A stretch of 64,000 nt of DNA, taken from IMG/VR virus record IMGVR_UViG_3300045988_125296; one strand, 5' to 3'. Shown here piece by piece: positions 8,359 through 57,320 of the stretch. Source of the stretch: a virus. Made by a program: the position numbers and the translations under genes. Within the stretch, counting starts at the first letter, position 1. Every line of letters starts with the position of its first letter. The notes beneath the pieces were generated by a model. That model saw only the letters and a program-made list of their open reading frames with translations, ran no database searches and was not told the origin of the DNA.

Positions 8359-8654
8359 TGGGAAGAGTTTACACTGGAATGGTTATTCGTACAAGTTATG
8401 GTACGGGTCCATATAGGATAGTGGACTTCACGGAGAATTGTACTTGTCCGAGTTTTATGGACGCAGTTACTTCTGGAAGTAATGCTCCACCGTCAAGACC
8501 TCATTATCACTTTATTTGTAGGAAAGTGGGCGAACATAAAGGTTACTACTATGTAAACGGTTACGATGAGAATTTAAATTCTGTATGGGATGAAGACAGA
8601 GTAATCGTATGTGCGGAAGAGACTCTTTTCTTAACTATGTGTTGCGGGTTATGA
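8358..8654 (+). CDS. hypothetical protein with CxC...HxH..C motif
   Basis: Starts at the ATG at 8358 (MGRVYTG). NCTCPSF...PHYHFIC is a possible small Zn site. Confidence 0.6.
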   Translation: MGRVYTGMVIRTSYGTGPYRIVDFTENCTCPSFMDAVTSGSNAPPSRPHYHFICRKVGEHKGYYYVNGYDENLNSVWDEDRVIVCAEETLFLTMCCGL

Positions 8655-9275: not shown

Positions 9276-9947
9276 ATGGCGTTGGACAAAACAAAAACAA
9301 ATCCCTATCTTGGATGTGCGGTGCATGAGAACCTAATTAAAATAGGTGTTGAGTCTCCTATGGTAGAAACTAAACTTTCAAAATACGAGGAACGACTTGT
9401 TACCATTACTCGAAATGTAAGCGAAATTATGGTGGCTCTTGGTCTTGACTTGAAAGATGATAGTCTTTGCGAGACCCCAAGAAGAATCGCTAAAATGTAT
9501 CTTAATGAGATTTTTTGGGGGCTTGACTACAATAATTTTCCCAAGATTACCACTATCGAAAATAAGATGCAATATGATAACGTATTGCTCGAACGACATA
9601 TAAAGGTTAATTCCACTTGTGAGCATCATTTTATCCCTATGATGGGAGAGGCTTTTATTGCTTATCTCCCTGATAAGAAAGTTATAGGTCTTTCTAAGAT
9701 TAACCGTATTGTGGAGTTTTTCTCTCGAAGACCACAAGTTCAAGAAAGGCTCACTGAACAGATATTTCATACTCTTTGTATGCTTTTAGAAACGGACAAC
9801 GTTGCGGTTCTTATTAAAGCTGAGCATACTTGTGTGAAACTTCGTGGAGTTGAAGATACAAACTCGGATACTATAACTTCTCGTTTAGGCGGAATCTTTT
9901 TTAATTCTCCTTCAAGAAACGAATTTTACCAGTCAATTAGACTATGA
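9276..9947 (+). CDS. folE: GTP cyclohydrolase I
   Basis: STCEHHFIPMMGEAFIAYLP...VIGLSKINRIVEFFSRRPQVQERLTEQI...KAEHTCVKLRGV matches the FolE active-site and signature blocks. ATG at 9276. Confidence 0.9.
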   Translation: MALDKTKTNPYLGCAVHENLIKIGVESPMVETKLSKYEERLVTITRNVSEIMVALGLDLKDDSLCETPRRIAKMYLNEIFWGLDYNNFPKITTIENKMQYDNVLLERHIKVNSTCEHHFIPMMGEAFIAYLPDKKVIGLSKINRIVEFFSRRPQVQERLTEQIFHTLCMLLETDNVAVLIKAEHTCVKLRGVEDTNSDTITSRLGGIFFNSPSRNEFYQSIRL

Positions 9948-17346: not shown

Positions 17347-17408
17347 AGCACATTTCATAGATATATGCGTTCATAATTTTCTCAAAATTATCTACTATTT
17401 AGGTTGAA

Positions 17409-17446
17409 GGGAAACCGTTCGTGAAGAATAGTTTCCCTATTTTTGT
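17409..17446 (+). terminator. Rho-independent terminator after dps
   Basis: GGGAAAC(17409-17415)...GTTTCCC(17431-17437) followed by TATTTTTGTG. Confidence 0.6.
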
Positions 17447-17455
17447 GTCTAAAAA

Positions 17456-17607
17456 GAGCTGGATTTTCCTAAAAAGCGTAGATTTCTATATTCACCCTCC
17501 ATTTTGGATTTTAAAGCGACCTATTTTTCCTTATTTTCGGAGCTGGAAATTGGTTTTACCGAAAAAGAGCTGGAATTACCATGAATAAAGCCTTCGGAGC
17601 AGGATTT
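17456..17607 (+). repeat. iteron-like direct repeats GAGCTGGAWWT (four copies)
   Basis: GAGCTGGATTT 17456-17466, GAGCTGGAAAT 17540-17550, GAGCTGGAATT 17567-17577, GAGCAGGATTT 17597-17607. Copies 1 and 3 share a longer AAAAAGAGCTGGA. Confidence 0.6.
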
Positions 17608-17840
17608 CACGTATAGGTTAATATATTCAACCGTGAGAAAACGGGGTAAAAATGCGGTTTTACAAATAGTTAGCAAATAACATGCTGTATAGACCTAAGA
17701 AATTGCGGAAATGCGGGTTCAAATAAGAGTATAATATCTATATTATCACTATATATGTATATAGGAGTATGTATTGTATAAGGAAGTGTCGTATGTGTAT
17801 TCATCTTTACTGATGGGTAAGGGCTACATAGACAGGTAGA

Positions 17841-17910
17841 ATAAGCGTAATTAGCGTAGATAGACCTCTAATTAGGTATAATTACGTGTTTTTAGCGTGG
17901 AAATAAGCGT
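17841..17910 (+). repeat. clustered short repeats ATAAGCGT / TAGCGT
   Basis: ATAAGCGT at 17841-17848 and 17903-17910. TAGCGT at 17852-17857 and 17893-17898. Confidence 0.4.
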
Positions 17911-18053
17911 TAGAATAGATTATTATATAAGAAATAACCCATTTTCTTCTTTATATAGCATAAGAAATAAGAATTAGATATGCGGCGAAAATAGTTTATT
18001 GTAATATAGTATATATTACTTATACATATATAGAGGAAAGACACACATAGATT

Positions 18054-18073
18054 ATTGTTATTATAATAACAAT
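18054..18073. promoter_or_regulatory. 20-bp perfect palindrome ATTGTTATTATAATAACAAT
   Basis: Read directly. The two 10-nt halves are exact reverse complements. Confidence 0.7.
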
Positions 18074-18314
18074 TATATTTATTCGGCGTATGGGACGTAT
18101 GATATAGTGTAGATATATTCCTATGGAAGTTATATAGGGCGGGGACGATTGGAAAGGAAAGAATTTTTGGGCGAAATTTAATTTCATAATTTGCCTTATG
18201 GAAGAATAAGAACCCCAAGAGCTGAATTTGGGGGTCCCCTTAAATGGGATTTTTCTACGGCATGGCTTCGGGTAGTCCGTTTTTATAAGAACGTAGGTGG
18301 AGAACCCGTGTTTT

Positions 18315-18332
18315 TTATTGTTATAACAATAA
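18315..18332. promoter_or_regulatory. 18-bp perfect palindrome TTATTGTTATAACAATAA
   Basis: Read directly. Shares the half-site TTATTGTTA / ATTGTTAT with the 18054 palindrome. Confidence 0.7.
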
Positions 18333-18547
18333 CCAAAATGGCCTCCATAGGTGTATTTGGAAATCTCATCTATTTTACTTCGTGGGCACATGCGGGTGAA
18401 TTGGAAAATTCTCTCTTTTTCGTTATCTTTATGACAAGAACCAAACGTTATGCAGCCCGTATATGGGTGAAACGCACTTCGTATAAACGGCGATTTATCC
18501 GTGTCATCGTCTCCATTTAGAGTCTATATGGGCACAAAATGCCCTCT

Positions 18548-18623
18548 TTACAGTTACTTTATTAAAAATAGTTAAAATATACCTATATTTTGGTTATTGT
18601 ATAAGAAATAACTATATTTGTAT
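18548..18623 (+). repeat. copy A of a ~77-bp direct repeat carrying a promoter
   Basis: TTTACAGTTACTTTATTAAAAATAGTTAAAATATACCTATATTTTGGTTATTGTATAAGAAATAACTATATTTGTAT. Identical to 20949-21026 except for a one-base C indel. Confidence 0.85.
18589..18620 (+). promoter_or_regulatory. consensus Bacteroides-type promoter (repeat copy A)
   Basis: TTTG(18589-18592)-N20-TATATTTG(18613-18620), 28 nt before the ATG at 18648. The spacer holds the inverted repeat GTTATT-N8-AATAAC. Confidence 0.6.
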
Positions 18624-18647
18624 ACAGTTCATTAAAACCCCAAAGAT

Positions 18648-19028
18648 ATGACTAAGCTACATGATTTTCAGAGTATCGGCGATGTGCTGGAACCTTTCGA
18701 CCCCAATTACATCAGCGATAAACCGTATGAAATACCGGACATCAGTAAACGGGAGAAGCGATTTTTACGTAAAATCTCTATTTTGGAACATAAACTCCGT
18801 AGGGAGAGAATAAGTTTTGAATGGCTCCCCGATGATGAGATGTTCCGTGTTCACAAATACCGGAAAGGTACGGAATACCCCACGTATATGTATCTGGCTG
18901 TTTACATGGACGAGAACAAATACGCTTTCGGTGGTTACGAAACGGATTTGGTCGTTGACGGCAAAGTGTCGGTGGTGGTGGCTTCTGTAAAGGAATGGTT
19001 GTCTAACAATAAACCGGCGGTGAGATGA
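18648..19028 (+). CDS. hypothetical protein
   Basis: 126-aa ORF. Stop overlaps the next start (ATGA). Confidence 0.65.
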   Translation: MTKLHDFQSIGDVLEPFDPNYISDKPYEIPDISKREKRFLRKISILEHKLRRERISFEWLPDDEMFRVHKYRKGTEYPTYMYLAVYMDENKYAFGGYETDLVVDGKVSVVVASVKEWLSNNKPAVR

Positions 19029-19786
19029 TGACGACTGTACAGATATTCGGCAGGGAATATGGTTTTTGCCGTAGCGCAAAGGCTAACTACGAGGACAAAC
19101 ATAACCGCATGGTGAAACTGGCTTTACGGTTTGAGGAACTCAGCGAAAAATTCGACCGCATGATTGAGAAAGGTAGCTATGTTACCGATACGGCACGATG
19201 TGCGCTTGCTTGCAAGATGATGATGTATACTGGTATCCGGATTGGTAACGAGGGTTCTGCCGAAGGGTATATCACCAAGCCCCACCCCAATTCCAAGAAA
19301 GAACCGGAGTTCGTACAAACATACGGATTGACTACCTTGTTACCGGAACATGTATTGGTAAAGGGTCGCAAAGTGTTTCTTAATTTTATCGGGAAAAAAC
19401 AGGTTGAGAACAGTTTTACCCTTATCGGAGACCTCGCTAAACAAGTAAAGGAGGTTCTGAAAACAGTGGAACAAGGAGAAACACTTTTTGAAATTACGGA
19501 ATACGAACTTACTAAGTTTATTAAAAGATATGTAGGAAGGAGGTTCACTCCGAAGGATTTCCGGACTTTGCGAGCCAATATGTATGCGTGGGAAAAGTTC
19601 ATGGAGATATGCGAAAGGGAACTTCCCAGCACAAAGACCGAGTTTAATAAGGAGGTCAAGGAGATTGCCACTTATGTCAGCGAGCATTTGAACAATACAC
19701 CGGGTGTGTGCAAAGCATCCTATATTGACTCCATGCTATGGGACGAGGTTGCCGAGCAACGTCCAGTAACAAAGAGAAAGAAATAA
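19025..19786 (+). CDS. type IB DNA topoisomerase (poxvirus/bacterial TopIB-like)
   Basis: Catalytic-pentad context in order: GIRIGNEG (Arg), TYGLTTLLPEH, FIGKKQVE (Lys), TPKDFRTLRAN (Arg), NNTPGVCKASYI (Asn/His position and the Tyr nucleophile). Confidence 0.75.
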   Translation: MMTTVQIFGREYGFCRSAKANYEDKHNRMVKLALRFEELSEKFDRMIEKGSYVTDTARCALACKMMMYTGIRIGNEGSAEGYITKPHPNSKKEPEFVQTYGLTTLLPEHVLVKGRKVFLNFIGKKQVENSFTLIGDLAKQVKEVLKTVEQGETLFEITEYELTKFIKRYVGRRFTPKDFRTLRANMYAWEKFMEICERELPSTKTEFNKEVKEIATYVSEHLNNTPGVCKASYIDSMLWDEVAEQRPVTKRKK

Positions 19787-19806
19787 CATTTTAATTCATC
19801 AGCAAT

Positions 19807-19947
19807 ATGAGAAACTTAATTAGGGAATTGATTTCGGCTCTGAATGGAGACGAATATGAAGAAGCAAAGTCTATTACCGAGCAAATAAATGCTACGGGAG
19901 ACGAGGAGTTAATTAAACAGGCGGAATATATAAATTCAGTTCTATGA
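19807..19947 (+). CDS. hypothetical small protein
   Basis: 46 codons read by hand. ATGA overlap with the next gene. Confidence 0.4.
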   Translation: MRNLIRELISALNGDEYEEAKSITEQINATGDEELIKQAEYINSVL

Positions 19948-20165
19948 GCGCAATGGTTATCAGCGTACATTCCAGCTTTATAAAGTCTGCGGTGTACAAC
20001 GAGGACAAACAGAGTCTTCGTATCGAAATTGGCAACTCTTGGTATTACTATTATGGAGTTACCAAACAGAAAATAAACCGCTTCAAAAAGGCGGCATCCA
20101 AAGGGCAGTATTTCTGCAATTACATAAAAGGACGATACCGAACCATCAAAAGAACCGCAAGATGA
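19944..20165 (+). CDS. KTSC-domain protein
   Basis: SSFIKSAVYNEDKQSLRIEIGNSWYYYYGV...FKKAASKGQYFCNYIKGRY fits the KTSC pattern (S..i....Y.....L.v.F.....Y.Y..V......f....SkG.yf...I). Confidence 0.7.
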   Translation: MSAMVISVHSSFIKSAVYNEDKQSLRIEIGNSWYYYYGVTKQKINRFKKAASKGQYFCNYIKGRYRTIKRTAR

Positions 20166-20341
20166 AAACTGTTATATTTGACGTAATGTGTAATGGAAGA
20201 TTCGTTATGCAGTATCGGCATACATGGTGTCCGGCCTTTCCCATCGATTTGAAAGAAGTGGTGAATGAGATTGTAGCGAAGAGACCTACCCTTAAAGGAA
20301 AACGTATCGAATTATTTGAAACTAAAAGTGTATTGAAATGA
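20162..20341 (+). CDS. hypothetical small protein
   Basis: ATG at 20162 (MKTVIFDVMCNG) with an ATGA overlap. The track's 20039 start overlaps the KTSC gene. Confidence 0.45.
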   Translation: MKTVIFDVMCNGRFVMQYRHTWCPAFPIDLKEVVNEIVAKRPTLKGKRIELFETKSVLK

Positions 20342-20511
20342 GAACAATAGCAGAGAATTTAGTGGACAAGATGCTTAGGGCATATCCCTATTGTGTAGTA
20401 AATGTGGAAACGGCTTTCAAGTTTATTGAACAAGGAGGTCATGTTAACGTGGAGCAGTTTAAGAACTGGCTTGAAACCAATGGTTATTGGCTAACCTATT
20501 ATAATAGCTAA
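20338..20511 (+). CDS. hypothetical small protein
   Basis: 57 codons read by hand. ATGA overlap. Confidence 0.45.
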   Translation: MRTIAENLVDKMLRAYPYCVVNVETAFKFIEQGGHVNVEQFKNWLETNGYWLTYYNS

Positions 20512-20553
20512 TGTAAGAAATATTGAAGCGTTTAATTTAAATAGTAAATAATT

Positions 20554-20916
20554 ATGGGACTTACGTTAAGTAAAAAGTACGGAGTAAATCCATCTGTGGA
20601 AACTTGTGCTATATGTGGTAATGAAATGGGTGTCTTATTATTCGGAAATAGCTATAAGGATGAAAATGGGCATATTGCGGAAGCACCTTATAAATTATGC
20701 TTGGGTAATATTTGCGATGACTGTAAGAAAACCCTTTCTTCCGGAGGTATTTTCTTTATCGAAGTGGAGGATGGTGAAAGTGGTAGAAATCCTTTCCGCA
20801 CTGGCCGAATGATTGCGATTAAGGAGGATGCTGTCAAGAAAATCTTCAAAAAATACGAGAAAGTGAATTATGTTGAACACAGCTTATATAACAAACTATT
20901 TTCAGAACCACTATGA
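20554..20916 (+). CDS. hypothetical zinc-ribbon protein
   Basis: CAICGNE...CLGNICDDCKK gives two CxxC-type pairs. Confidence 0.6.
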   Translation: MGLTLSKKYGVNPSVETCAICGNEMGVLLFGNSYKDENGHIAEAPYKLCLGNICDDCKKTLSSGGIFFIEVEDGESGRNPFRTGRMIAIKEDAVKKIFKKYEKVNYVEHSLYNKLFSEPL

Positions 20917-20948
20917 CAAAATGAGGCTATCCGTTGATTTAATACCTA

Positions 20949-21026
20949 TTTACAGTTACTTTATTAAAAATAGTTAAAATATACCCTATATTTTGGTTAT
21001 TGTATAAGAAATAACTATATTTGTAT
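20949..21026 (+). repeat. copy B of the ~77-bp direct repeat carrying a promoter
   Basis: Same sequence as 18548-18623 with one extra C (ATATACCCTATATT). Confidence 0.85.
20992..21023 (+). promoter_or_regulatory. consensus Bacteroides-type promoter (repeat copy B)
   Basis: TTTG(20992-20995)-N20-TATATTTG(21016-21023), upstream of the ATG at 21089. Confidence 0.6.
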
Positions 21027-21088
21027 CGTTGAAAGTTCAACAACCCCTCAGCATGGTGCTGGTGGGTAATTAGAAAAATCTCACAGCA

Positions 21089-21457
21089 ATGAAAAAGGCA
21101 AAAGTAATTTTTTCCGTAGGTGTTTCTCACACTCTTTATGAAAAGGAAGTTTGTGCAGTTATTCTCAATGAAAATTGTGGATTCGATGGAAGACAGGTTT
21201 ACGCTCGTACAGTTGAGCCCGTTCATTTTGATGAAGACCCAGAGGGTATCATAATTTTTAATAAATGGGGTTCTATTATTGGCTTTGAAAAAAGCCCGCT
21301 TATGATAAAATTTATGAGGGTTATTGCAAGGTTGTTAATGGTAAAATTATTTAAGCTATGGATATGGAATTTAATCGTAGCACTGGGAGAAAAATCTCAC
21401 AAAGAGTTCAAGAAGTTCTTTCCGAAGTTCTTAAAGAAGAAGGTTTCGAGTTTATAA
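21089..21457 (+). CDS. hypothetical protein (3' third overlaps the next gene)
   Basis: The first ~75 aa look protein-like. The last ~33 codons overlap 21358..22053 in another frame. Confidence 0.45.
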   Translation: MKKAKVIFSVGVSHTLYEKEVCAVILNENCGFDGRQVYARTVEPVHFDEDPEGIIIFNKWGSIIGFEKSPLMIKFMRVIARLLMVKLFKLWIWNLIVALGEKSHKEFKKFFPKFLKKKVSSL

Positions 21458-22053
21458 TCAATGGCGGTACGTATACAGACGATAAGCTGAAACTTAACTT
21501 GGAAGTTTACATTAAAAACAAAAACGGTACACGGGTTGTTTCTGATAAGAGCCATGAGATTGCCGACAAGAATGCATCAATGGCGGGACTGAAATTTGAG
21601 GGTCATCTCATTGGCAGCATTTGGAATGTAAATGGCTTTACGTACACAGTTACGGGTTACACCACTAAACGGCGTAAATTTCCAGTCTCCCTTAAAAGAG
21701 ATGACGGTCGTTTATCGAAAGCACCTGTGATGTTCTTGGCACAGGGTATACAAGTAACCAAGCCTACATTGGAGAATTTTGTTAAGTGGTTTACATTAGA
21801 CCCCGACAGTGATGCAATTTTGGAAACAGACGCTGAGATATGTGACGGGGTTCAAAGTTATTTGCAAAATAATTATCCGGCAGATATAATGTATAAGTTT
21901 TGCAATTTAGTGGATAACTTTAATGAGAAGGGTATTGCGAAGAAATGGGCGAAGCGTGCGTATGAGCTTTTGTTCAAAGAAGCTCCTGCAACAATGGAAC
22001 ATGCTTATCTTGGATTGAAAGTGATTTATAAGGAACAGACAAAAAAGAAATAA
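21358..22053 (+). CDS. hypothetical protein
   Basis: 231-aa ORF. An in-frame TAA at 21352-21354 fixes the ATG at 21358 as the start. Confidence 0.65.
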   Translation: MDMEFNRSTGRKISQRVQEVLSEVLKEEGFEFIINGGTYTDDKLKLNLEVYIKNKNGTRVVSDKSHEIADKNASMAGLKFEGHLIGSIWNVNGFTYTVTGYTTKRRKFPVSLKRDDGRLSKAPVMFLAQGIQVTKPTLENFVKWFTLDPDSDAILETDAEICDGVQSYLQNNYPADIMYKFCNLVDNFNEKGIAKKWAKRAYELLFKEAPATMEHAYLGLKVIYKEQTKKK

Positions 22054-22066
22054 AAACATCAGCAAA

Positions 22067-22417
22067 ATGAAAACTCAGGAAATAATCGAAACAATCAAAA
22101 TCGGATTTGACAAGCCGAAATTGTACAAACGTTCTATCTGGAACAAAGCTGTAAAAGTAATGGAGTTCTTATCTGACAATGCCAATGGCGAAATTACGAG
22201 GACCAATCTTGGTTCGGGTCTTGAAAAATATAAAGCCGAAGTCGAAGTAAATGATGAACAGTTAGCTGTATGGGCTTTATCGTATAAACGGCATTTAGGA
22301 ATTCCCATCACTTTCAGCGAAGCCTTGCCCGAACTTAATCGTATCTCAAAAGAACTCGGAGTCCCTGTAAATAATGGACTTGTTCTTATCGAATATAATA
22401 ACAGACATTCTAATTAA
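22067..22417 (+). CDS. hypothetical protein
   Basis: 116-aa ORF. Confidence 0.6.
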   Translation: MKTQEIIETIKIGFDKPKLYKRSIWNKAVKVMEFLSDNANGEITRTNLGSGLEKYKAEVEVNDEQLAVWALSYKRHLGIPITFSEALPELNRISKELGVPVNNGLVLIEYNNRHSN

Positions 22418-22436
22418 CCCCTATAAACTATATCAC

Positions 22437-23858
22437 ATGGAAACTAAAAAACTTATCAGCACATTGAAAGGATTTAAAACTCGCTTTACTAAAAATCCGA
22501 ATGCAGAACTTGAAAAGAAATCCGTTGAAGGACTTGCCGAATCTTTCGGTGGCAAACTTGAAACGCTTGCAATACTTAAAGAACAAGGATGTGAAGAACT
22601 TAAAGAATATGTCAGAGGAGTGTTCGGTATGGCTTTAAGTTCTAAACCGATGGGAAAAGTTGTTTCTGTTGACGAGGACGGAAAAGAATATGCGTGTGTC
22701 AACGGTAAGATTTATACGATTGATACCGTAAAAAAGACCATGAAGAAAGTTTACAAAGACTTTAAGGACATCAGTTTAGCAGACTTGGAAGTTTCTGACA
22801 AGGATATGCCGATGACGGTTTACCAAAGATATTTAAGAGATAATTTCCCTAATGAGGACGCTCCTATTAAAAAAGGGAAACTTCATTTTAGAGGTTATCG
22901 GATTTCTTGTACGGCAGAAGATGGTTTTGTTGTTGAGGACACCATGAAAAAATATGCTATTGTTGAAACTCCGTTTGAGGGCATCCCTACTCCAAAAGAA
23001 TTGGGAGATTGGTTCAAAACACCGAAGAATGTTATTGAGTCTTTGAACGAATATCATGAAGCTGTTGAACGTGGAAAGGAACTTGCACGTAAAGCTAAGG
23101 AGGAAAAAGAAAGTAAACGTAATGAAGAAGTCGAGATTGATTTTGAAAAACTTCGCAGAAAGGTTTTACGTCTTATCAAGGATTCACGGTCAAAGACTAT
23201 TGACGTTGACCCCGAAAAATTTGTGGATATTATACCTTTCAAAAGATGGCAGCGAAAAGTTAAGTCTTTGTTCTCTTTGTGGAAAAATAGAAAACTTCGT
23301 TACAATAAATTCTTGAATGAGGTTGAGAAAATAACAAAAGAAGAAACTTTCGTTATCGAAGAAAAGAAAAATAAAACTACTTTTGTCGGCACACTTTTAC
23401 CTGAACATAAAACGGTGGGTTCTTTAAAAGAAAACAAGATAGAGGTCGATGGTAAATGGGTTGATGCCGTTCCTTTTCTCTTGGAGTATTTACTCTTTTA
23501 TGAGAAGAAAGCTATGTATCAAATAATGAAATATGCGGCTGGTGAGATAACGGATATTGAGTTAATAAAAAATCCGATTGAGGTCGATAAAAGAATTGAG
23601 TATCAGAAAAAAGCTCTTGAAAATACAGCTCATAATGCAAAGGTTTTGTGCATGGTGTACGCACAAGTGGGTATTGTGGCGCCGCATGATTTATTATTTG
23701 AAGCTGACCTTGAAGTTGGAGATAGGATACTTCTTTTTGATGGAGGAAACTTCGTAACAAGAACTATTTCGTCAGTAGATAAGGGAATCGTTCTTGGTAA
23801 AGATGTTGGTTTACTTAAACTTGACAAATGGATTAAACTTCCAAAGAAGTCAAAATAA
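22437..23858 (+). CDS. hypothetical large protein with central K/E-rich coiled coil
   Basis: First ATG at 22437 (METKKLIS). 473 aa. Confidence 0.7.
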   Translation: METKKLISTLKGFKTRFTKNPNAELEKKSVEGLAESFGGKLETLAILKEQGCEELKEYVRGVFGMALSSKPMGKVVSVDEDGKEYACVNGKIYTIDTVKKTMKKVYKDFKDISLADLEVSDKDMPMTVYQRYLRDNFPNEDAPIKKGKLHFRGYRISCTAEDGFVVEDTMKKYAIVETPFEGIPTPKELGDWFKTPKNVIESLNEYHEAVERGKELARKAKEEKESKRNEEVEIDFEKLRRKVLRLIKDSRSKTIDVDPEKFVDIIPFKRWQRKVKSLFSLWKNRKLRYNKFLNEVEKITKEETFVIEEKKNKTTFVGTLLPEHKTVGSLKENKIEVDGKWVDAVPFLLEYLLFYEKKAMYQIMKYAAGEITDIELIKNPIEVDKRIEYQKKALENTAHNAKVLCMVYAQVGIVAPHDLLFEADLEVGDRILLFDGGNFVTRTISSVDKGIVLGKDVGLLKLDKWIKLPKKSK

Positions 23859-26633: not shown

Positions 26634-26665
26634 TTTGTTAGTATGGATAAATTCATCTATATTTG
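26634..26665 (+). promoter_or_regulatory. consensus Bacteroides-type promoter ahead of the packaging/structural block
   Basis: TTTG(26634-26637)-N20-TATATTTG(26658-26665). Confidence 0.55.
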
Positions 26666-27805: not shown

Positions 27806-29461
27806 ATGCCAGTTAGGAAAAAAATTATTCCAAAAGAGGAAGGGTATGTTTTTCCGTCTACTGGGAAAAAATTTACCGAGGAGGAGGTAACCTCTGCTTT
27901 TGAGGGTAAATCTGTATCTTTTGATGCACACGATATTACCTCTAAGATAATCGAGTTTGGGAAGATTCTAACAGGTATCTCCCTTTACAGTTACCAGATA
28001 GAAGCTGTTTATGCGATTATCTATTCAGTAATAACGTTTTCGGGTGACGTTAAGACTCTATTGTTTAGTAGACAATCAGGGAAGTCTGAGGCAATAGCCT
28101 TTGTTATTGATACGCTTTGTGTATTGTTACCGTCACTTGGAAAAATCATTCCCGACTTGGAGCAGTTCAGTATGGGTTTCCGTGTTGGTTTGTTTGCCCC
28201 TCAATCGGACCAAGTTCAGACTACTTATTCTCGTGCGATGACAAGAATAAATTCCGCAAATGCGGAAATGGTATTGGCAGACCCAGATATTGATGTCTAT
28301 CTTGAAAGTACGGCAAGACTTGAATTAAGTAATGGCTCATACCTTGCAGGACAAGTAGCGAGTAAACAATCTAAGATTGAGTCAAAGACATACGACCTCG
28401 TTATTGTTGAGGAGGCACAAGATGTGGACGACCTTATCGTGAGTAAGTCTATCGAGCCTATGCTTTCTTCTACGGCTGGTACTTTAATTAAAGTGGGTAC
28501 TACGGGTATGTATAAGAATCATTTTTGGTATGAGATTCAACATAATAGACAAATTGACCGTAAGATAAAAGACTCACGTATTAGGAATCATTTTGAGTTT
28601 GACTATAAGCGTATTATAAGAGATAGACGTGAGCAGTATGAAAAGGACGGTAAACGTTTCCACTTAAATTATGAGGCTGATATTCTTCGTAAAAAAGCTC
28701 GTTGGGGTGAAGATTCTCAGGCGTTTAAGTTATCATACGCTTTGATTTGGGATTTAGAGAGTGGTATGCTTCTTACGGATAAGGAATACAACTCCATTAT
28801 AAATCGTAAATTAGGTTTTCAGTCTCCGTCAACTACTGATGTTGTAATAGCCGGATTGGACATTGGTAAATCTCCTGCTGAGACGGTATTGACAATCGGG
28901 AAAAAGTTTTACCTTGATGATTCTTTTGATAGACCCTATAAACAAATTCTTGCTTGGGTGGCTCTTGGTGGATTGGACTATGAGGCCCAACATCATATAA
29001 TCTTGGATTGTATTGTGGAATTTAATATTTCTGTTATATTTGCGGATTATACGGGTGTCGGTAAAGCTGTTGTCGATAGGCTTATGTATGCGTGCGGAGA
29101 ATATGTCGATATTGTTCCTTATACGTTTACTCCACAGAGTAAATCGGATATGTGGTTTAACTTTGTCTCGGATATTCAGACAAGGCACTTAATTGTTCCG
29201 GCTAATCCAAAAGTTCGGGCTACCACAGAGTACATGAAATTTGAAGAACAGATGAAGAATTGCCAGAAGTATTTTAACGGGGCTTACATGGTATGTGAGA
29301 AATCTGATGGATATTTTGACGACTTTGTAGATAGTTGCGCTCTTATGAGTATGGCTGCTAATGAGGAGCAAAGAGTTGATGAAGAAATGGAAGTTTCTCA
29401 AAATTCTCTTTACAGTGGAGTTACTGATACTATAAACGCAATTAGAAGAAATTCTTATTAG
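27806..29461 (+). CDS. terL: terminase large subunit
   Basis: Walker A-like LFSRQSGKSEA, Walker B YDLVIVEEAQD, C-terminal RNaseH-like nuclease Asp blocks (VIAGLDIG, FADYTGVG). Sits immediately upstream of the portal gene. Confidence 0.85.
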   Translation: MPVRKKIIPKEEGYVFPSTGKKFTEEEVTSAFEGKSVSFDAHDITSKIIEFGKILTGISLYSYQIEAVYAIIYSVITFSGDVKTLLFSRQSGKSEAIAFVIDTLCVLLPSLGKIIPDLEQFSMGFRVGLFAPQSDQVQTTYSRAMTRINSANAEMVLADPDIDVYLESTARLELSNGSYLAGQVASKQSKIESKTYDLVIVEEAQDVDDLIVSKSIEPMLSSTAGTLIKVGTTGMYKNHFWYEIQHNRQIDRKIKDSRIRNHFEFDYKRIIRDRREQYEKDGKRFHLNYEADILRKKARWGEDSQAFKLSYALIWDLESGMLLTDKEYNSIINRKLGFQSPSTTDVVIAGLDIGKSPAETVLTIGKKFYLDDSFDRPYKQILAWVALGGLDYEAQHHIILDCIVEFNISVIFADYTGVGKAVVDRLMYACGEYVDIVPYTFTPQSKSDMWFNFVSDIQTRHLIVPANPKVRATTEYMKFEEQMKNCQKYFNGAYMVCEKSDGYFDDFVDSCALMSMAANEEQRVDEEMEVSQNSLYSGVTDTINAIRRNSY

Positions 29462-45260: not shown

Positions 45261-47405
45261 ATGGCAGGAAGTGGTAAGGCTCAATTTGCTTATGATTTTG
45301 GAATAGCCATCTCGCAGAGCACTTTAACTAAGTTAACACGGCTTACTGGGGCTTCTCTTACTTTGGCTTCGGCATTTTATGCCTTAAAGAGTACTGCCTC
45401 TGAATACGTTGACGTTTTGAAAGAGAACACTATCCGATTAGGAGGTGTTCTCTCTACTATGCAAGCTATGGAACAAGCTCAACGGAGACTTGTTCAAGGA
45501 CAATCTTACTTTGACGTTAGCGACCAATTAAAAGGTATGAATCAGCTCATGTCTGTTGGCGTTAAAGTTGGAGAAAATCTTGATTGGGTAAGTAAAGCCG
45601 CTCATGCTACGGGTAAGAGTTTTGCCGAATTTTCAGGACTTATCACAAATGCCATCAATGGGAATTTACAAGGCTTAGTCGATGCCGGCTTTATGACACA
45701 AAGAGCGACAAAAATGTTCGCTAAGTTTCAAGGCAATACTGTGATGATGCAGAATGCCGTTATGAACTTTCTTAAAACGCATAAAGGGTTAATGAGGGCC
45801 ATAGAGAATGACTTTGTAACAATTCAAGATGGCACAAATAGACTTAAAGGGGTATATAAATCTTTCTTACATTCTGTAATTGGTAAGCCGAATGACCCAA
45901 GTAGTCTTTACGGGGCTTTTTCTGGAATGCTTCAAATGATTGGAGATAAATTTGGTAAAGGCGGTGAACTTACCCAGAACATGATTGCCATAAAAAGGTA
46001 TGGCGAAGGAATTGGTATGGTTCTTAATTGGGTTGTCACCCAAGTTGGGCATACGATAGTTTGGCTCGGTAAACAAGCTAAAAAAGTTACTCAGACTTTA
46101 CTTGGTTCAAGTGATACTTTTGCAGAACGAATGAGGTCTTTTGTTGTGTGGTTGGAATTTTGGAAACTTCGAGTCGTTGATTTTTTCAAGGAATATGGTA
46201 ATGAGATAAAAGGTGTACTTAAACTTCTTATTGCGTACAAGGTATTAAAAAGTGTATTCGTTATTGGAGATGCTGCTATGAAGTCGGTTAGGTCTTACAG
46301 AACTGGACTTCGGCGTACTTTTGCCCTACGAGAAAGGTATGTTAGACGTATGCGTGATGACGGAAATAAGTATACTCGATGGCTTCAATCACTGGCTGTT
46401 TTTTTACCACGATGGGCCAGAAAAATATACGTTTCTGTGGGAAAGATTCTTAATTTGGTATTTTTCAATCGTGAAATTATCGCTGAAAAATTAGGATTTT
46501 TCCTCTTTAAGGTTAAACAAGTTTTTGGTTTTGTTGCAAAAGGACTCAAATTTATTTTTGGTCTTATTAGAAATATAAGAGTTATAATACCCGCATTAGC
46601 TAATGGATTTAGAGCTTTATTGACTGCTTTTAGCACTACCAATCCATTAGGGTGGATTATGCTTGCTGTTGCAGCAGTTGTTATGTTATACAACAAGTTT
46701 AAAGGAGTTAGAACCTATATAAATGGTGCTCTTAAATTGTGGTGGGAACAGATAAAACTTCTTTGGAATATCATTGCCACCGTCATCAATGCTGTTATTT
46801 ATGGCCTTAAATGGCTATGGGAAAAATTTAAGGAATGGATAATTACTCCCTTCGAGAATTTATTCTCGATGATAGGTGATGGCCTTAAATGGATATGGGA
46901 TAAGATTAAAGATTCACCTATTGTGAAATGGCTTCGGGAGAATATATTTGAACCTATTGAACATGTTTGGGATATAGTTAAGCAAATATTCTCAAAATTT
47001 GCAAATATTCCCGGAAAGATTGCCAATTTTTTTGGCAAAGGTAATGACGCTTTACATGAATTAAATGAGAAAATGGCTGCTGAGACAGGAGTTAATCTTG
47101 CAGTCAAAGGCGGTAAATACGATGAGAATGACTCCGAGAATTATATGGATAGATTGTTCGGTAAGAAAGATGAAAAAACCGACACACCCAATCCATTAGC
47201 GACATCTTTTAACATGCCCAGTGACTTTGGAAGTGTAGGTGGTGGAAATAGTGGACCTTCTACTAATTTATCATTTGGAAACGGAGCCATTCAGATTATT
47301 GTACAAAACGGAGAAGGCATCGATGAGAATGTTCTTGCCCGAAAAGTTAAACAGGTTATTCTTGATTTGAAGAGAGATAATAATGTGAGAGGAGGTACAT
47401 TATGA
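45261..47405 (+). CDS. tail tape measure protein
   Basis: 714 aa, helical, with central hydrophobic/W-rich repeats (LKWLWEKFKEWI, LKWIWDKIKD). Sits in the canonical position. Confidence 0.8.
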   Translation: MAGSGKAQFAYDFGIAISQSTLTKLTRLTGASLTLASAFYALKSTASEYVDVLKENTIRLGGVLSTMQAMEQAQRRLVQGQSYFDVSDQLKGMNQLMSVGVKVGENLDWVSKAAHATGKSFAEFSGLITNAINGNLQGLVDAGFMTQRATKMFAKFQGNTVMMQNAVMNFLKTHKGLMRAIENDFVTIQDGTNRLKGVYKSFLHSVIGKPNDPSSLYGAFSGMLQMIGDKFGKGGELTQNMIAIKRYGEGIGMVLNWVVTQVGHTIVWLGKQAKKVTQTLLGSSDTFAERMRSFVVWLEFWKLRVVDFFKEYGNEIKGVLKLLIAYKVLKSVFVIGDAAMKSVRSYRTGLRRTFALRERYVRRMRDDGNKYTRWLQSLAVFLPRWARKIYVSVGKILNLVFFNREIIAEKLGFFLFKVKQVFGFVAKGLKFIFGLIRNIRVIIPALANGFRALLTAFSTTNPLGWIMLAVAAVVMLYNKFKGVRTYINGALKLWWEQIKLLWNIIATVINAVIYGLKWLWEKFKEWIITPFENLFSMIGDGLKWIWDKIKDSPIVKWLRENIFEPIEHVWDIVKQIFSKFANIPGKIANFFGKGNDALHELNEKMAAETGVNLAVKGGKYDENDSENYMDRLFGKKDEKTDTPNPLATSFNMPSDFGSVGGGNSGPSTNLSFGNGAIQIIVQNGEGIDENVLARKVKQVILDLKRDNNVRGGTL

Positions 47406-54743: not shown

Positions 54744-57320
54744 ATGGAAGTAGGTAGTAACCTTGTGGCAACAGAGTCTGAACTACGACATTTAGGTATA
54801 GATATTTCCACCTTAGAAAAAAATCTTACTTTACCGAATCCTGAATATGTAAATAAGAAAAGATTTGGCAAGGGTAAGATTTATGGACATATTGAACCTT
54901 ATATTTGTTATTTAAAGAAAGTAGGTTCATCTTATATTGTTCCTCGATATTACATAGGAGAACTTGGTAAGTATGGGAATGAAGGTAGAGACGTAAAGAT
55001 TCATTTTAAGTTCAAACTTCGGGATTATCAACAAAAATTTTGGGACGATAATTCTTCTGCCTTTGAAGAAAGCACAGGTATTTTACTTGAAGCTGCTTGT
55101 GGTACGGGTAAGTGTCATGGAAAAGGAACTCCCATTCTTATGTACGATGGGTCTGTTAAGAATGTAGAGGACATTCGTGTTGGGGATTTACTTATGGGTG
55201 ATGATAGTACACCTCGTAGGGTTCTTTCTCTTGCAAGGGGTCATGAGGAGATGTTTGTCGTGCATCAGAAAAAAGGCATTGATTATACTGTAAATAGGTC
55301 TCACATATTATCATTGCAATATAGGCCATGGGGATTTGGTAATAAAGAGCAGCATAGGAAGGATGCTCATAATGCCTCTCAGTATGGAGAAGTAAGGGAT
55401 ATTTGCATCGAGGATTATTTGAAACTTTCTAAGACTCAGAAATCATATCTTTACGGATATTGTGTTCCAGTTGAATATTCTAATAGGGAAGTTCAGATTC
55501 CTCCTTATTTTCTTGGTGCATGGCTTGGCGATGGAACTTCTCGTGTGCCACACATTACAACAGACCGCAGAGATAGGGTTTTGGTTCACTATTATCGTGA
55601 AATTGCGGGTATGTTTAATTGTAATCTTGAACTTGTTAGGCAGGAGGGTAATAATTCCAATGTATATAAGTTTGTTGGTAAGGAGATTGAAAAAGGAAGA
55701 CATAAGAACCCTCTTTTAGATGCTTTGAGATTTTATAATCTAATTCAGAATAAGCATATCCCGGATGATTATCTTATCAATTCAAGGGAAAATCGCTTGC
55801 AGCTTCTTGCAGGATTACTTGATACTGATGGAAGTTATAGTACGGGTTGCTTTGATTTTATTCAGAAACGAAAAGACCTTGCTTTGCAGGTTCGTAAGCT
55901 GTGTTGGTCATTGGGTTTTCGTGTAAAATTGACTAAGAAAATTATTAAGGGTCAATCTTACTGGAGATTGTCTATAAGTGGCGATTTTAGTGAATTACCC
56001 ACTAAATTGGGTAGAAAAGTTCCACTTAGAAGGCGCATAAATAAAGACTCAAGGGTTAATGGAATATCTGTTGAAAGTATTGGAGAAGGAGATTACTACG
56101 GTTTTACTCTTGATGGAAATCATAGGTACTGCCTTGCAGATGGCACAGTTACACATAATACTATTATGGCCATTTATTTTTCGATGATTCGAGGTAAACA
56201 GACAATGGTATTGGTTCCCACTTATTATTTGGCCAAGCAATGGAAACAACGTATTGAAGAGTCAACAGATTCTACTTGTATAATTGTTTCCTCTAAGGAT
56301 ACCGAAATTCGTGTGGATAGTGACTTTACAATAATTGTTTTGGATTTATTTACGTGTAGAAAACTTCCTGCTGAACTTATACATAATGTAGGCCACGTTA
56401 TTCTTGACGAGGCTCATCGTGTTGGTGCTGAGATGTATCTTCCTATTCTTGACGAAGTACCTGCCATTTATCGGACTGCTCTTACGGCTACATTTCGAAG
56501 AACGGATGGAGTTCATAAGATACTTAAATACCACTTTGGAGAGTGTATTCAGATGAAGAGTCATTTTCCACGGCCTCTTGTTTATAGTGTAAAGACTAAT
56601 GTACAAATAAGGAGTATCTTATCGAAAAATAAGAAGTACGAACATTTTGTAGACTTCTTGGATAGGAACAATGTTCCTTATTCTGAGACTAAAAGTGCCA
56701 TAGAGTTTCCATCTCTTGATTTAAGAGATGTTGCAGAAAAAGAATATAAAAAGGGGGTTCTTACAAAAACTGCTTTTCATGAAATAGCTTCATGTCTTAA
56801 ACGAAGTTCTGAGATGCCTTATTCAGTCGTTGACTCGTATTTGAATGAACATTCTGGACGTAGAAAGATTGCTATTCGTGTTATTCAAGAATGTTTGGAC
56901 TCAGGTAGAAACATTCTTTTCCTCTCAAAGCGAAAATCTACCTTGAAGGACTTACACAAGTATTTTGCAGCATATAAGCCTATGCTCATCGTTTCTGAGA
57001 CAAATTCACGGTCTCCCGAAGATGAGGATTACTTGCAGAATACTTGCCCCCTTATTTTTGGTATCTCACAATTAGCTAAGGAAGGTCTTGATATTGATAG
57101 GTTAGATACCCTTATTATTCATTTACCTATGAAAGATACCGAACAAGCTATTGGACGTATAAATCGTCTCTACGAGGGTAAGAAATTTCCTGTTTGTTTA
57201 TATCTTTTGGATAATTGCCCTATTACGTTTGCCGTTTTTAGAAATGCCCAAAAATTTATCTCCATCAATGCCGATTATAAAGGTGAACGGACTCTTTTAA
57301 CTTTAAAATCTGCCTTATAG
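54744..57320 (+). CDS. SF2 (DEAH) DNA helicase interrupted by an intein
   Basis: LRDYQ, split Walker A GTGK/T, ILDEAH, LTATFRR, QAIGRINR. Confidence 0.85.
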   Translation: MEVGSNLVATESELRHLGIDISTLEKNLTLPNPEYVNKKRFGKGKIYGHIEPYICYLKKVGSSYIVPRYYIGELGKYGNEGRDVKIHFKFKLRDYQQKFWDDNSSAFEESTGILLEAACGTGKCHGKGTPILMYDGSVKNVEDIRVGDLLMGDDSTPRRVLSLARGHEEMFVVHQKKGIDYTVNRSHILSLQYRPWGFGNKEQHRKDAHNASQYGEVRDICIEDYLKLSKTQKSYLYGYCVPVEYSNREVQIPPYFLGAWLGDGTSRVPHITTDRRDRVLVHYYREIAGMFNCNLELVRQEGNNSNVYKFVGKEIEKGRHKNPLLDALRFYNLIQNKHIPDDYLINSRENRLQLLAGLLDTDGSYSTGCFDFIQKRKDLALQVRKLCWSLGFRVKLTKKIIKGQSYWRLSISGDFSELPTKLGRKVPLRRRINKDSRVNGISVESIGEGDYYGFTLDGNHRYCLADGTVTHNTIMAIYFSMIRGKQTMVLVPTYYLAKQWKQRIEESTDSTCIIVSSKDTEIRVDSDFTIIVLDLFTCRKLPAELIHNVGHVILDEAHRVGAEMYLPILDEVPAIYRTALTATFRRTDGVHKILKYHFGECIQMKSHFPRPLVYSVKTNVQIRSILSKNKKYEHFVDFLDRNNVPYSETKSAIEFPSLDLRDVAEKEYKKGVLTKTAFHEIASCLKRSSEMPYSVVDSYLNEHSGRRKIAIRVIQECLDSGRNILFLSKRKSTLKDLHKYFAAYKPMLIVSETNSRSPEDEDYLQNTCPLIFGISQLAKEGLDIDRLDTLIIHLPMKDTEQAIGRINRLYEGKKFPVCLYLLDNCPITFAVFRNAQKFISINADYKGERTLLTLKSAL
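55113..56159 (+). mobile_element. intein with LAGLIDADG homing-endonuclease domain (349 codons)
   Basis: Begins with Cys (TGT 55113-55115: CHGKGTPILMYDG) and ends THN (AAT 56157-56159), followed by Thr. Block B TVNRSH. LAGLIDADG motifs LGAWLGDGTS and LLAGLLDTDGS. Excision restores GTGKT. Confidence 0.8.

Follow-up and report, generated by a model that had tools for sequence, protein, structure and literature searches.

What does it mean when two near-identical direct repeats frame a small group of genes in a phage genome: that the group was inserted there, or that one regulatory element is present twice? The question is raised by a 64,000-nucleotide (nt) stretch of viral DNA, IMG/VR virus record IMGVR_UViG_3300045988_125296 (the whole stretch is called the window here), in which an upstream repeat copy, U, and a downstream copy, D, lie about 2.4 kb apart and enclose seven open reading frames (ORFs), one of them encoding a type IB DNA topoisomerase (TopIB). 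A preliminary description of this sequence had proposed that the block is a cassette, either inserted with duplication of a promoter or equipped with a duplicated promoter to drive it, and that recombination between the repeats could delete it. In our assessment, the two repeats are probably an old pair of copies of a promoter-operator module, which are kept alike by gene conversion and also serve as a substrate for recombination.

The repeats as two copies of a promoter module

U occupies positions 18543-18623 (81 nt) and D positions 20945-21026 (82 nt), both on the plus strand, and the two differ by one substitution (18546, C in U versus A in D) and one extra C. The repeat is slightly longer than first noted, and the second of the intervals originally given begins one base early in register; inside those intervals the single C indel reported earlier is the only difference, to which the full repeat adds the substitution. 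U and D constitute the sole dispersed direct repeat of at least 30 nt within the window, and U is found in every related contig that has sufficient upstream sequence.

Each copy carries a core promoter consisting of TTTG, a 20-nt spacer and TATATTTG, as the preliminary description had stated and as the positions of the boxes confirm. The exact TTTG-N20-TATATTTG pattern occurs three times in the window, versus 0.03 occurrences expected. The consensus of the primary sigma factor of Bacteroides, sigma-ABfr, is TTTG at -33 and TAnnTTTG at -7 (PMC7366714). Its -7 box is matched by TATATTTG at 18613-18620 in U and at 21016-21023 in D, and its -33 box, expected about 19-21 nt from the -7 box, by TTTG at 18589-18592 and 20992-20995, so that the core promoter of U spans 18589-18620. 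As in sigma-ABfr promoters, both boxes are perfect, the spacer measures 20 nt and the orientation matches that of the genes. Unlike in those promoters, the spacer is a conserved 20-bp palindrome, GTTAT-N10-ATAAC (18593-18612 and 20996-21015), and with a conserved distal element the unit reaches about 80 bp.

The palindrome is exact at two sites in the window, both of them in the repeat copies, and the other promoter-like sites in the genome of the window and in that of the isolate Bacteroides phage BS162P1 (OP172706, host B. salyersiae) are without it. The palindrome-bearing motif is present exactly twice in the window, twice in the complete 88.9-kb genome of BS162P1, and at most twice in any IMG/VR contig. 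The palindrome half-sites and both promoter boxes are invariant over 22 lineage variants, an invariance that is partly circular, as the IMG/VR scan required the half-sites; loci found via the 494-amino-acid (aa) protein encoded downstream of D mostly retain the half-sites, with single deviations. The distal element (GTTACTTTATTAAAAATAGTTAAAATAT; 18553-18580 in U and 20955-20982 in D) is an A/T-rich, imperfect GTTAC-N10-type sequence located 40 bp upstream of the core palindrome. It is kept in both copies, in relatives, and in lineages with a single promoter, and may act as an UP-like element or as a second operator.

The start codon of a 126-aa gene lies 27 nt downstream of the U promoter and that of a 122-aa ORF 65 nt downstream of the D promoter, and the position and strand of both promoters relative to these ORFs are consistent with transcription of the genes. 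A scan for terminator-like sites between U and D and near either copy returned none, and the only hairpin is situated in the leader downstream of D. Judged by their sequence, the repeats are two copies of one promoter module of about 80 bp and not merely two boxes, which supports the earlier suggestion that they are promoter copies.

Age of the promoter pair and of the enclosed genes

The locus was compared with about 65 related contigs and with BS162P1, for which a literature search found no paper. IMG/VR was scanned with TopIB, the 494-aa downstream protein and the promoter pattern as queries, and further relatives came from a metagenome scan anchored on the 494-aa protein and from exact-protein look-ups of a 116-aa protein and of Dps. 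The relatives, of which individual ones are cited below by labels such as L003, span TopIB identities from 99% to 52%. Their gene order is near-universal: Dps, a long non-coding region, U, the 126-aa gene and TopIB, variable small genes, D, (a 231-aa gene,) the 116-aa gene and the 494-aa gene, with U and D spaced 1814-5967 bp apart. In five deep lineages whose promoter sequences differ (those of the window, L006, BS162P1, L077 and L087), D stands directly behind a 120-aa gene; a homologue of the 231-aa gene was detected downstream of D in four of the five, the next gene of BS162P1 not being detected as one.

The first part of the block had been described as GC-rich, and a GC profile together with the GC content at third codon positions (GC3) bears this out. 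The region 18700-19450 has 44-47% GC versus 36.4% for the whole window, and the 126-aa gene, TopIB and the gene for a KTSC-domain protein, with GC3 values of 0.50-0.51, rank as the top three of 104 ORFs (z ~3). These highest GC3 values, and the fact that the repeats bracket the block exactly, are what a recent insertion of a foreign, GC-richer cassette would predict, the promoter having been duplicated on entry as by a mobile element with target duplication. We consider such an event very improbable. The cassette and its GC3 excess are shared by relatives down to 52% TopIB identity, and the excess of the 126-aa gene and TopIB is common to almost all lineages, whatever their local GC. Among the ~65 contigs, anchored on TopIB, the 494-aa protein, the 116-aa protein or Dps, there is no empty site at which a single repeat is joined to the downstream genes, so that the contig with one repeat and no cassette for which a comparison had been suggested did not turn up; nor does any contig mapped contain a duplicated cassette, the reciprocal product of a crossover. 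Pfam and PHROG scans of all seven ORFs gave only TopIB, KTSC and unknowns, with no transposase or integrase, and a search for a prophage or host origin found no close relative of TopIB in 185,579 bacterial and archaeal genomes. In addition, the repeats are 81-bp units with the make-up of functional promoters, whereas target duplications are short. Neither of the features that define an insertion cassette, an empty site and a transposase or integrase, was found for this locus.

Divergence within the block points the same way. The TopIB proteins of the window and of L005 are 92% identical, versus only 76% identity at the DNA level; the synonymous divergence between lineages is high, so the genes have diverged in situ, with purifying selection acting on them. 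Since the pair, the core genes and the GC3 excess are shared and no empty site was found, the cassette is old. The promoter pair dates far back in a large clade of 80-90-kb Bacteroides phages of the gut, and the enclosed 126-aa and TopIB genes have long been resident there and are under purifying selection. A recent insertion, as one reading of the earlier idea, finds no support in this comparison. The outcome set against it at the time, namely that all relatives carry both repeats and the same genes with uniform composition and that the repeats are only a reused promoter, describes the locus in part: nearly all relatives do carry both repeats and share the GC3 excess, but their gene content is not uniform, and a promoter that is merely reused is too simple a description.

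An unusual arrangement was seen in contig BNJU01000003.1 (238 kb; L103 and L106), in which two related copies of the whole region lie ~79 kb apart and one of them has frameshifted genes; this contig is maybe a concatenated or chimeric assembly of two related phages.

Concerted evolution of U and D

Concerted evolution of dispersed paralogues by gene conversion is a general phenomenon, and its marks are evident in this pair. Over 83 nt, the U and D of a single genome show 80-100% identity, versus 65-75% for the best orthologue in another deep lineage; that is, paralogues are closer to each other than orthologues are. Derived variants shared by both copies of one genome are also found among close relatives. 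U of L003 differs from U of the window at 10 of 81 positions, versus 87 of 1919 in the flanks (Fisher p=0.005), and the U copies of the window and of L002 each match the D copy of the same genome, lineage-specific variants (AAAATATACC(C)TATA versus AAAAATATACCTGTA) included. In the comparison of close relatives, the conversion tracts are restricted to the repeat. U equals D in BS162P1, and the U of two relatives at 99.2% identity differs by 2 nt; a private A>G change in contig 152696 is present in both copies. Of the 15 close relatives having both copies, 11 bear matching haplotypes of the variable stretch at the two positions, versus a mean of 5.7 matches after shuffling (P ~0.001); the matches involve three haplotypes, one of which is confined to two genomes. 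Most telling is that both paralogues show the same derived variant. Some D copies bear the left-boundary variant of U; copying therefore goes both ways. Taken together, the likeness within genomes and the private variants in both copies indicate that U and D are homogenised by recurrent gene conversion of short tracts, in both directions.

Could the two copies instead be alike because they serve the same sigma factor and a lineage-specific regulator, recombination playing no part? The invariant half-sites and boxes would suit such simple reuse of a promoter, as would the conservation of the distal element even in single-copy lineages and the lack of any crossover deletion or duplication product in the relatives. 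We nevertheless regard this explanation as unlikely. The identity between U and D also covers positions that vary freely between lineages, namely the palindrome centre, the stretch from the distal element to the -33 box and the first transcribed bases, and, among relatives with 96-99% identity elsewhere, private single-base changes and indels turn up repeatedly in both U and D of a given genome. Parallel selection would need to fix the same neutral-looking change twice, and to do so many times.

Gene conversion between U and D shares with concerted evolution in general the likeness within genomes, the shared private variants and the mosaic tracts. In contrast to the usual cases, the converted unit here is a non-coding promoter of 80 bp in a virulent-looking phage, its copies lie 2-6 kb apart, and the tracts are very short, ~80-120 nt or less.

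Loss of D and movement of genes between the copies

The preliminary description had predicted that homologous recombination between the repeats would make the cassette deletable. Recombination between the copies is borne out in the form of gene conversion and of module movement, whereas the predicted crossover deletion was unseen in ~65 contigs. Natural variants lose D itself instead, or lose TopIB internally with both promoters kept. In three close relatives, D was lost via different microhomology deletions and the cassette was retained: the deletion runs between two GATTTAAT in L113, has a junction at which CCTATT meets ATGG in L114, and runs between two TAAGAAATA in L126, where the 120-aa gene was removed too. 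Four deeper lineages (L081, L083, L103 and L089) have U only. In contig 161248, an internal deletion takes most of TopIB and leaves both promoters, and the L088-L090 lineage is without TopIB. D is dispensable and frequently lost. A further form of damage was noticed in the distant relative L017 (~9590-9650), in which D is internally deleted between the distal element and the -33 box.

Genes have also changed places between the two copies. A conserved leader (a hairpin followed by GGGTAAT..AGAAAAATCCCAC) together with a 63-aa gene is located behind U in BS162P1 and behind D in L075, the proteins being 69% identical. In the window, the same leader lies behind D (21027-21088, plus strand, with the hairpin CAGCA-TGG-TGCTG and with GGGTAAT..AGAAAAATCTCAC ahead of the start codon), yet it is joined to the orphan 122-aa ORF (21089-21457, plus strand), which overlaps the 231-aa gene out of frame. 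The segment 21055-21356, which contributes to this ORF, is an insertion found only in the window strain and in the near-identical contig L109; L003 lacks the ORF, as do 18 of 19 close relatives, and L109 alone among the fetched relatives has a homologue. Similarly, a KTSC block is found behind TopIB in L084 and behind D in L085.

The sub-clade of L083, L084 and L085 deserves separate consideration, as D is absent or displaced there. L083 has no D, D of L084 is an 87-nt insertion relative to L083, and D of L085 occupies a different site and shares 120 nt with U at 100% identity. New duplication may therefore account for some D copies. Extended to the whole clade, and taken with the several lineages without D, these cases would favour an explanation in which U is recopied in each lineage as a 'mobile promoter', D is not old, and conversion does not take place. 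Such a course of events appears improbable to us. D stands behind the 120-aa gene in five deep lineages with differing promoters, and repeated insertion at the same site is unlikely. Moreover, where the flanks of D are orthologous and near-identical, the interior of the repeat alone switches haplotype, which is conversion by definition, and the left-boundary variants of some D copies match U, i.e., U was copied into an existing D.

Genes and non-coding sequence around the repeats

All genes at the locus are encoded on one strand, the plus strand. The seven ORFs between U and D that had been listed from the sequence, the type IB topoisomerase among them, were confirmed, with profile matches to PF01028 and PF13619; in order they encode proteins of 126 aa, TopIB, 46 aa, the KTSC protein, 59 aa, 57 aa and 120 aa. 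The 126-aa protein (18648-19028; GC3 0.51) is usually the product of the first gene behind U and a conserved neighbour of TopIB. Its family was encountered on contigs of this phage clade only, and its AlphaFold model (pLDDT 84) has no fold match in the PDB below E=0.3.

TopIB (19025-19786; 253 aa) is of the poxvirus/bacterial type and matches PF01028 with 61.8 bits versus a cutoff of 23.7 (E=7.8e-17). Its matches in the PDB are Deinococcus radiodurans TopIB (2f4q; 9.6e-10) and the variola enzyme (2h7f). As in these enzymes, the catalytic domain has the conserved Lys, Arg and Asn and the catalytic Tyr, aligned in the motifs GK, DFRT, NTP (Asn as in D. radiodurans) and SY; the first Arg (in GIRIGNE) was spotted by eye only. 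In contrast to them, the protein is just 253 aa long. Compared with the solved homologues, it lacks the first ~45-50 residues and begins roughly at the GRxxY motif, and most of the N-terminal DNA-binding domain is therefore probably missing. The 126-aa protein was considered as the source of this domain and rejected, as it gave no PDB sequence hit and no fold match. Poxvirus-type TopIB sites, (C/T)CCTT, were likewise discarded as marks of the repeat borders: they occur at chance frequency, no listed site is inside either repeat, and the conserved CCCTTAAATGG element upstream of U is kept even in a lineage that lacks TopIB.

A 46-aa ORF (19807-19947), present in most close relatives and absent from L003, L004 and L110, precedes the KTSC-domain protein (19944-20165; 73 aa; GC3 0.50), which matches PF13619 with 49.3 bits versus a cutoff of 25 (E=4e-13). 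It is followed by a 59-aa ORF (20162-20341; phrog_24381) with homologues in relatives, by a 57-aa ORF (20338-20511), and by the cysteine-rich 120-aa protein (20554-20916), the last gene before D in the five deep lineages, which is possibly a zinc ribbon. The conserved genes downstream of D (21358-23858) encode the proteins of 231 aa (21358-22053), 116 aa (22067-22417) and 494 aa (22374-23858), and this block continues to portal, capsid and tail genes; the block upstream of the non-coding region has ligase, superoxide dismutase (SOD), Dps and similar genes.

Some observations on other genes of the window may be recorded here. A third Bacteroides-type promoter is located at 26634-26665, before a second KTSC paralogue (also at 14157 in L007 and at 8485 in BS162P1). 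The version of a 96-98% identical relative equals that of the distant BS162P1 (100%) and differs from that of the window, which suggests lateral exchange of this promoter region. The segment 14515-17346, just before the non-coding region, encodes a Tad2-like/Sequestin-domain protein, an Fe-type SOD and a Dps/ferritin. For the first two, the assignment rests on corresponding entries in the Pfam lists of near-identical contigs. GTP cyclohydrolase I and DNA ligase are encoded further upstream. A DEAD/ResIII helicase (54744-57320) is interrupted by a Hint and LAGLIDADG intein, and L115 has an intein in the homologue of a 551-aa protein that is intein-free in the window (27806-29461).

Between the Dps-like gene and U lies a 1.2-kb non-coding region (17347-18542) with no credible ORFs. 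An element within it at 18230-18248 (GGGGGTCCCCTTAAATGGG, core CCCTTAAATGG) is conserved upstream of U in almost every lineage and is also kept in a TopIB-less one. An Rfam scan of the whole window gave no match, and consensus RNA folding of the conserved block that precedes U yielded neither structure nor covariation. The conserved block is a DNA-level signal, and its GGGGGTCCCCTTAAATGGG element may be a packaging site, an origin or another protein-binding site. Similar sequences, GCCTTAAATGG, occur at 46804 and 46882, 78 bp apart, inside the ORF 45261-47405. Short GTTAT..ATAAC palindromes are found in the non-coding region at 18057-18070 and 18320-18333; the looser pattern GTTAY-N10-RTAAC, with one mismatch allowed, occurs 34 times versus 10 expected, an enrichment not relied on because strand counting is uncertain for a palindromic pattern. 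Three copies of (A)AAAGAGCTGGA(A/T)TT at 17440-17590 resemble iterons. The record of BS162P1 begins within the equivalent non-coding region, which makes U a plausible first promoter on the genome map.

Discussion

How would such a module work, and why would it be present twice? We propose a regulated promoter in which the boxes for the host sigma factor are combined with one or two operators for a putative dimeric regulator, which would bind the palindrome. U would head the first transcription unit after the long non-coding region and would probably act early, and D, as an internal second copy ~2.4 kb downstream, would probably boost or co-regulate the next genes. With the module present twice, the first two gene blocks would thus be driven and controlled alike. 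D would at the same time be redundant with read-through from U. During replication and recombination, the 80-120 bp of identity would permit short non-crossover exchanges that homogenise the copies, and an occasional unequal exchange followed by loss would let genes switch between U and D. A crossover deletion of the whole block must be rare or counter-selected, because none was observed.

Several points count against this account of an old pair kept alike by conversion. Judging from the sub-clade of L083, L084 and L085, some D copies may be new duplications and not old copies that were converted. The shuffle of haplotypes ignores the relatedness of the genomes, and part of the likeness of U and D could stem from selection for identical binding of a regulator. 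The invariance of the half-sites carries the circularity mentioned above, promoter activity and its timing are inferred from the match to the consensus, and most relatives are metagenome assemblies, in which strain mixtures could in principle yield chimeric contigs.

There is also a small chance that the module is a self-propagating regulatory cassette, which is copied to further intergenic positions, takes leader-plus-gene modules along and overwrites its paralogue by conversion, its palindromes being bound by a co-evolving phage regulator. If that were true, gene turnover at the leading end of these abundant gut phages would be driven mainly by the module. In a more speculative extension, the TopIB encoded between the copies would stimulate the exchanges.

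The closest known counterparts of the duplicated promoter-operator module are the promoter-early stem-loop (PeSL) cassettes of T4-type phages, in which a sigma-70 promoter and a terminator stem-loop form a unit that is present in many copies (Arbiol et al. 2010, PMC2839356; Comeau et al. 2014, PMC4122927). As with PeSL, short repeated promoter modules are situated amid small, variable genes, mostly unknowns; homologous recombination between copies explains how close relatives differ, and a gene may be linked to one copy or to another. In the present locus this takes the form of a leader-plus-gene module that stands at U or at D and of strain-specific small genes inserted just behind D. Unlike PeSL, the module has a Bacteroidetes-type promoter with an operator-like palindrome, and its main signal is homogenising gene conversion and not indels. 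The locus works like PeSL but is not PeSL, because it has no terminator stem-loop and exactly two copies instead of many.

The locus is a clear but fairly ordinary case of phage genome evolution, and the feature is of a known kind. It nevertheless offers a clean natural example of concerted evolution in an 80-bp non-coding element, and it corrects a tempting misreading, as direct repeats and a GC shift are here no sign of a recent insertion. The module is also a concrete candidate promoter-operator for engineering or for studies of early gene control in these phages. The clade of human-gut Bacteroides phages to which they belong is very common and almost unannotated, the exact 116-aa protein being indexed in 533 blocks of a public-assembly collection. 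With this locus, the idea that repeated promoters act as recombination substrates which shuffle small genes is extended to the phages of Bacteroidetes.

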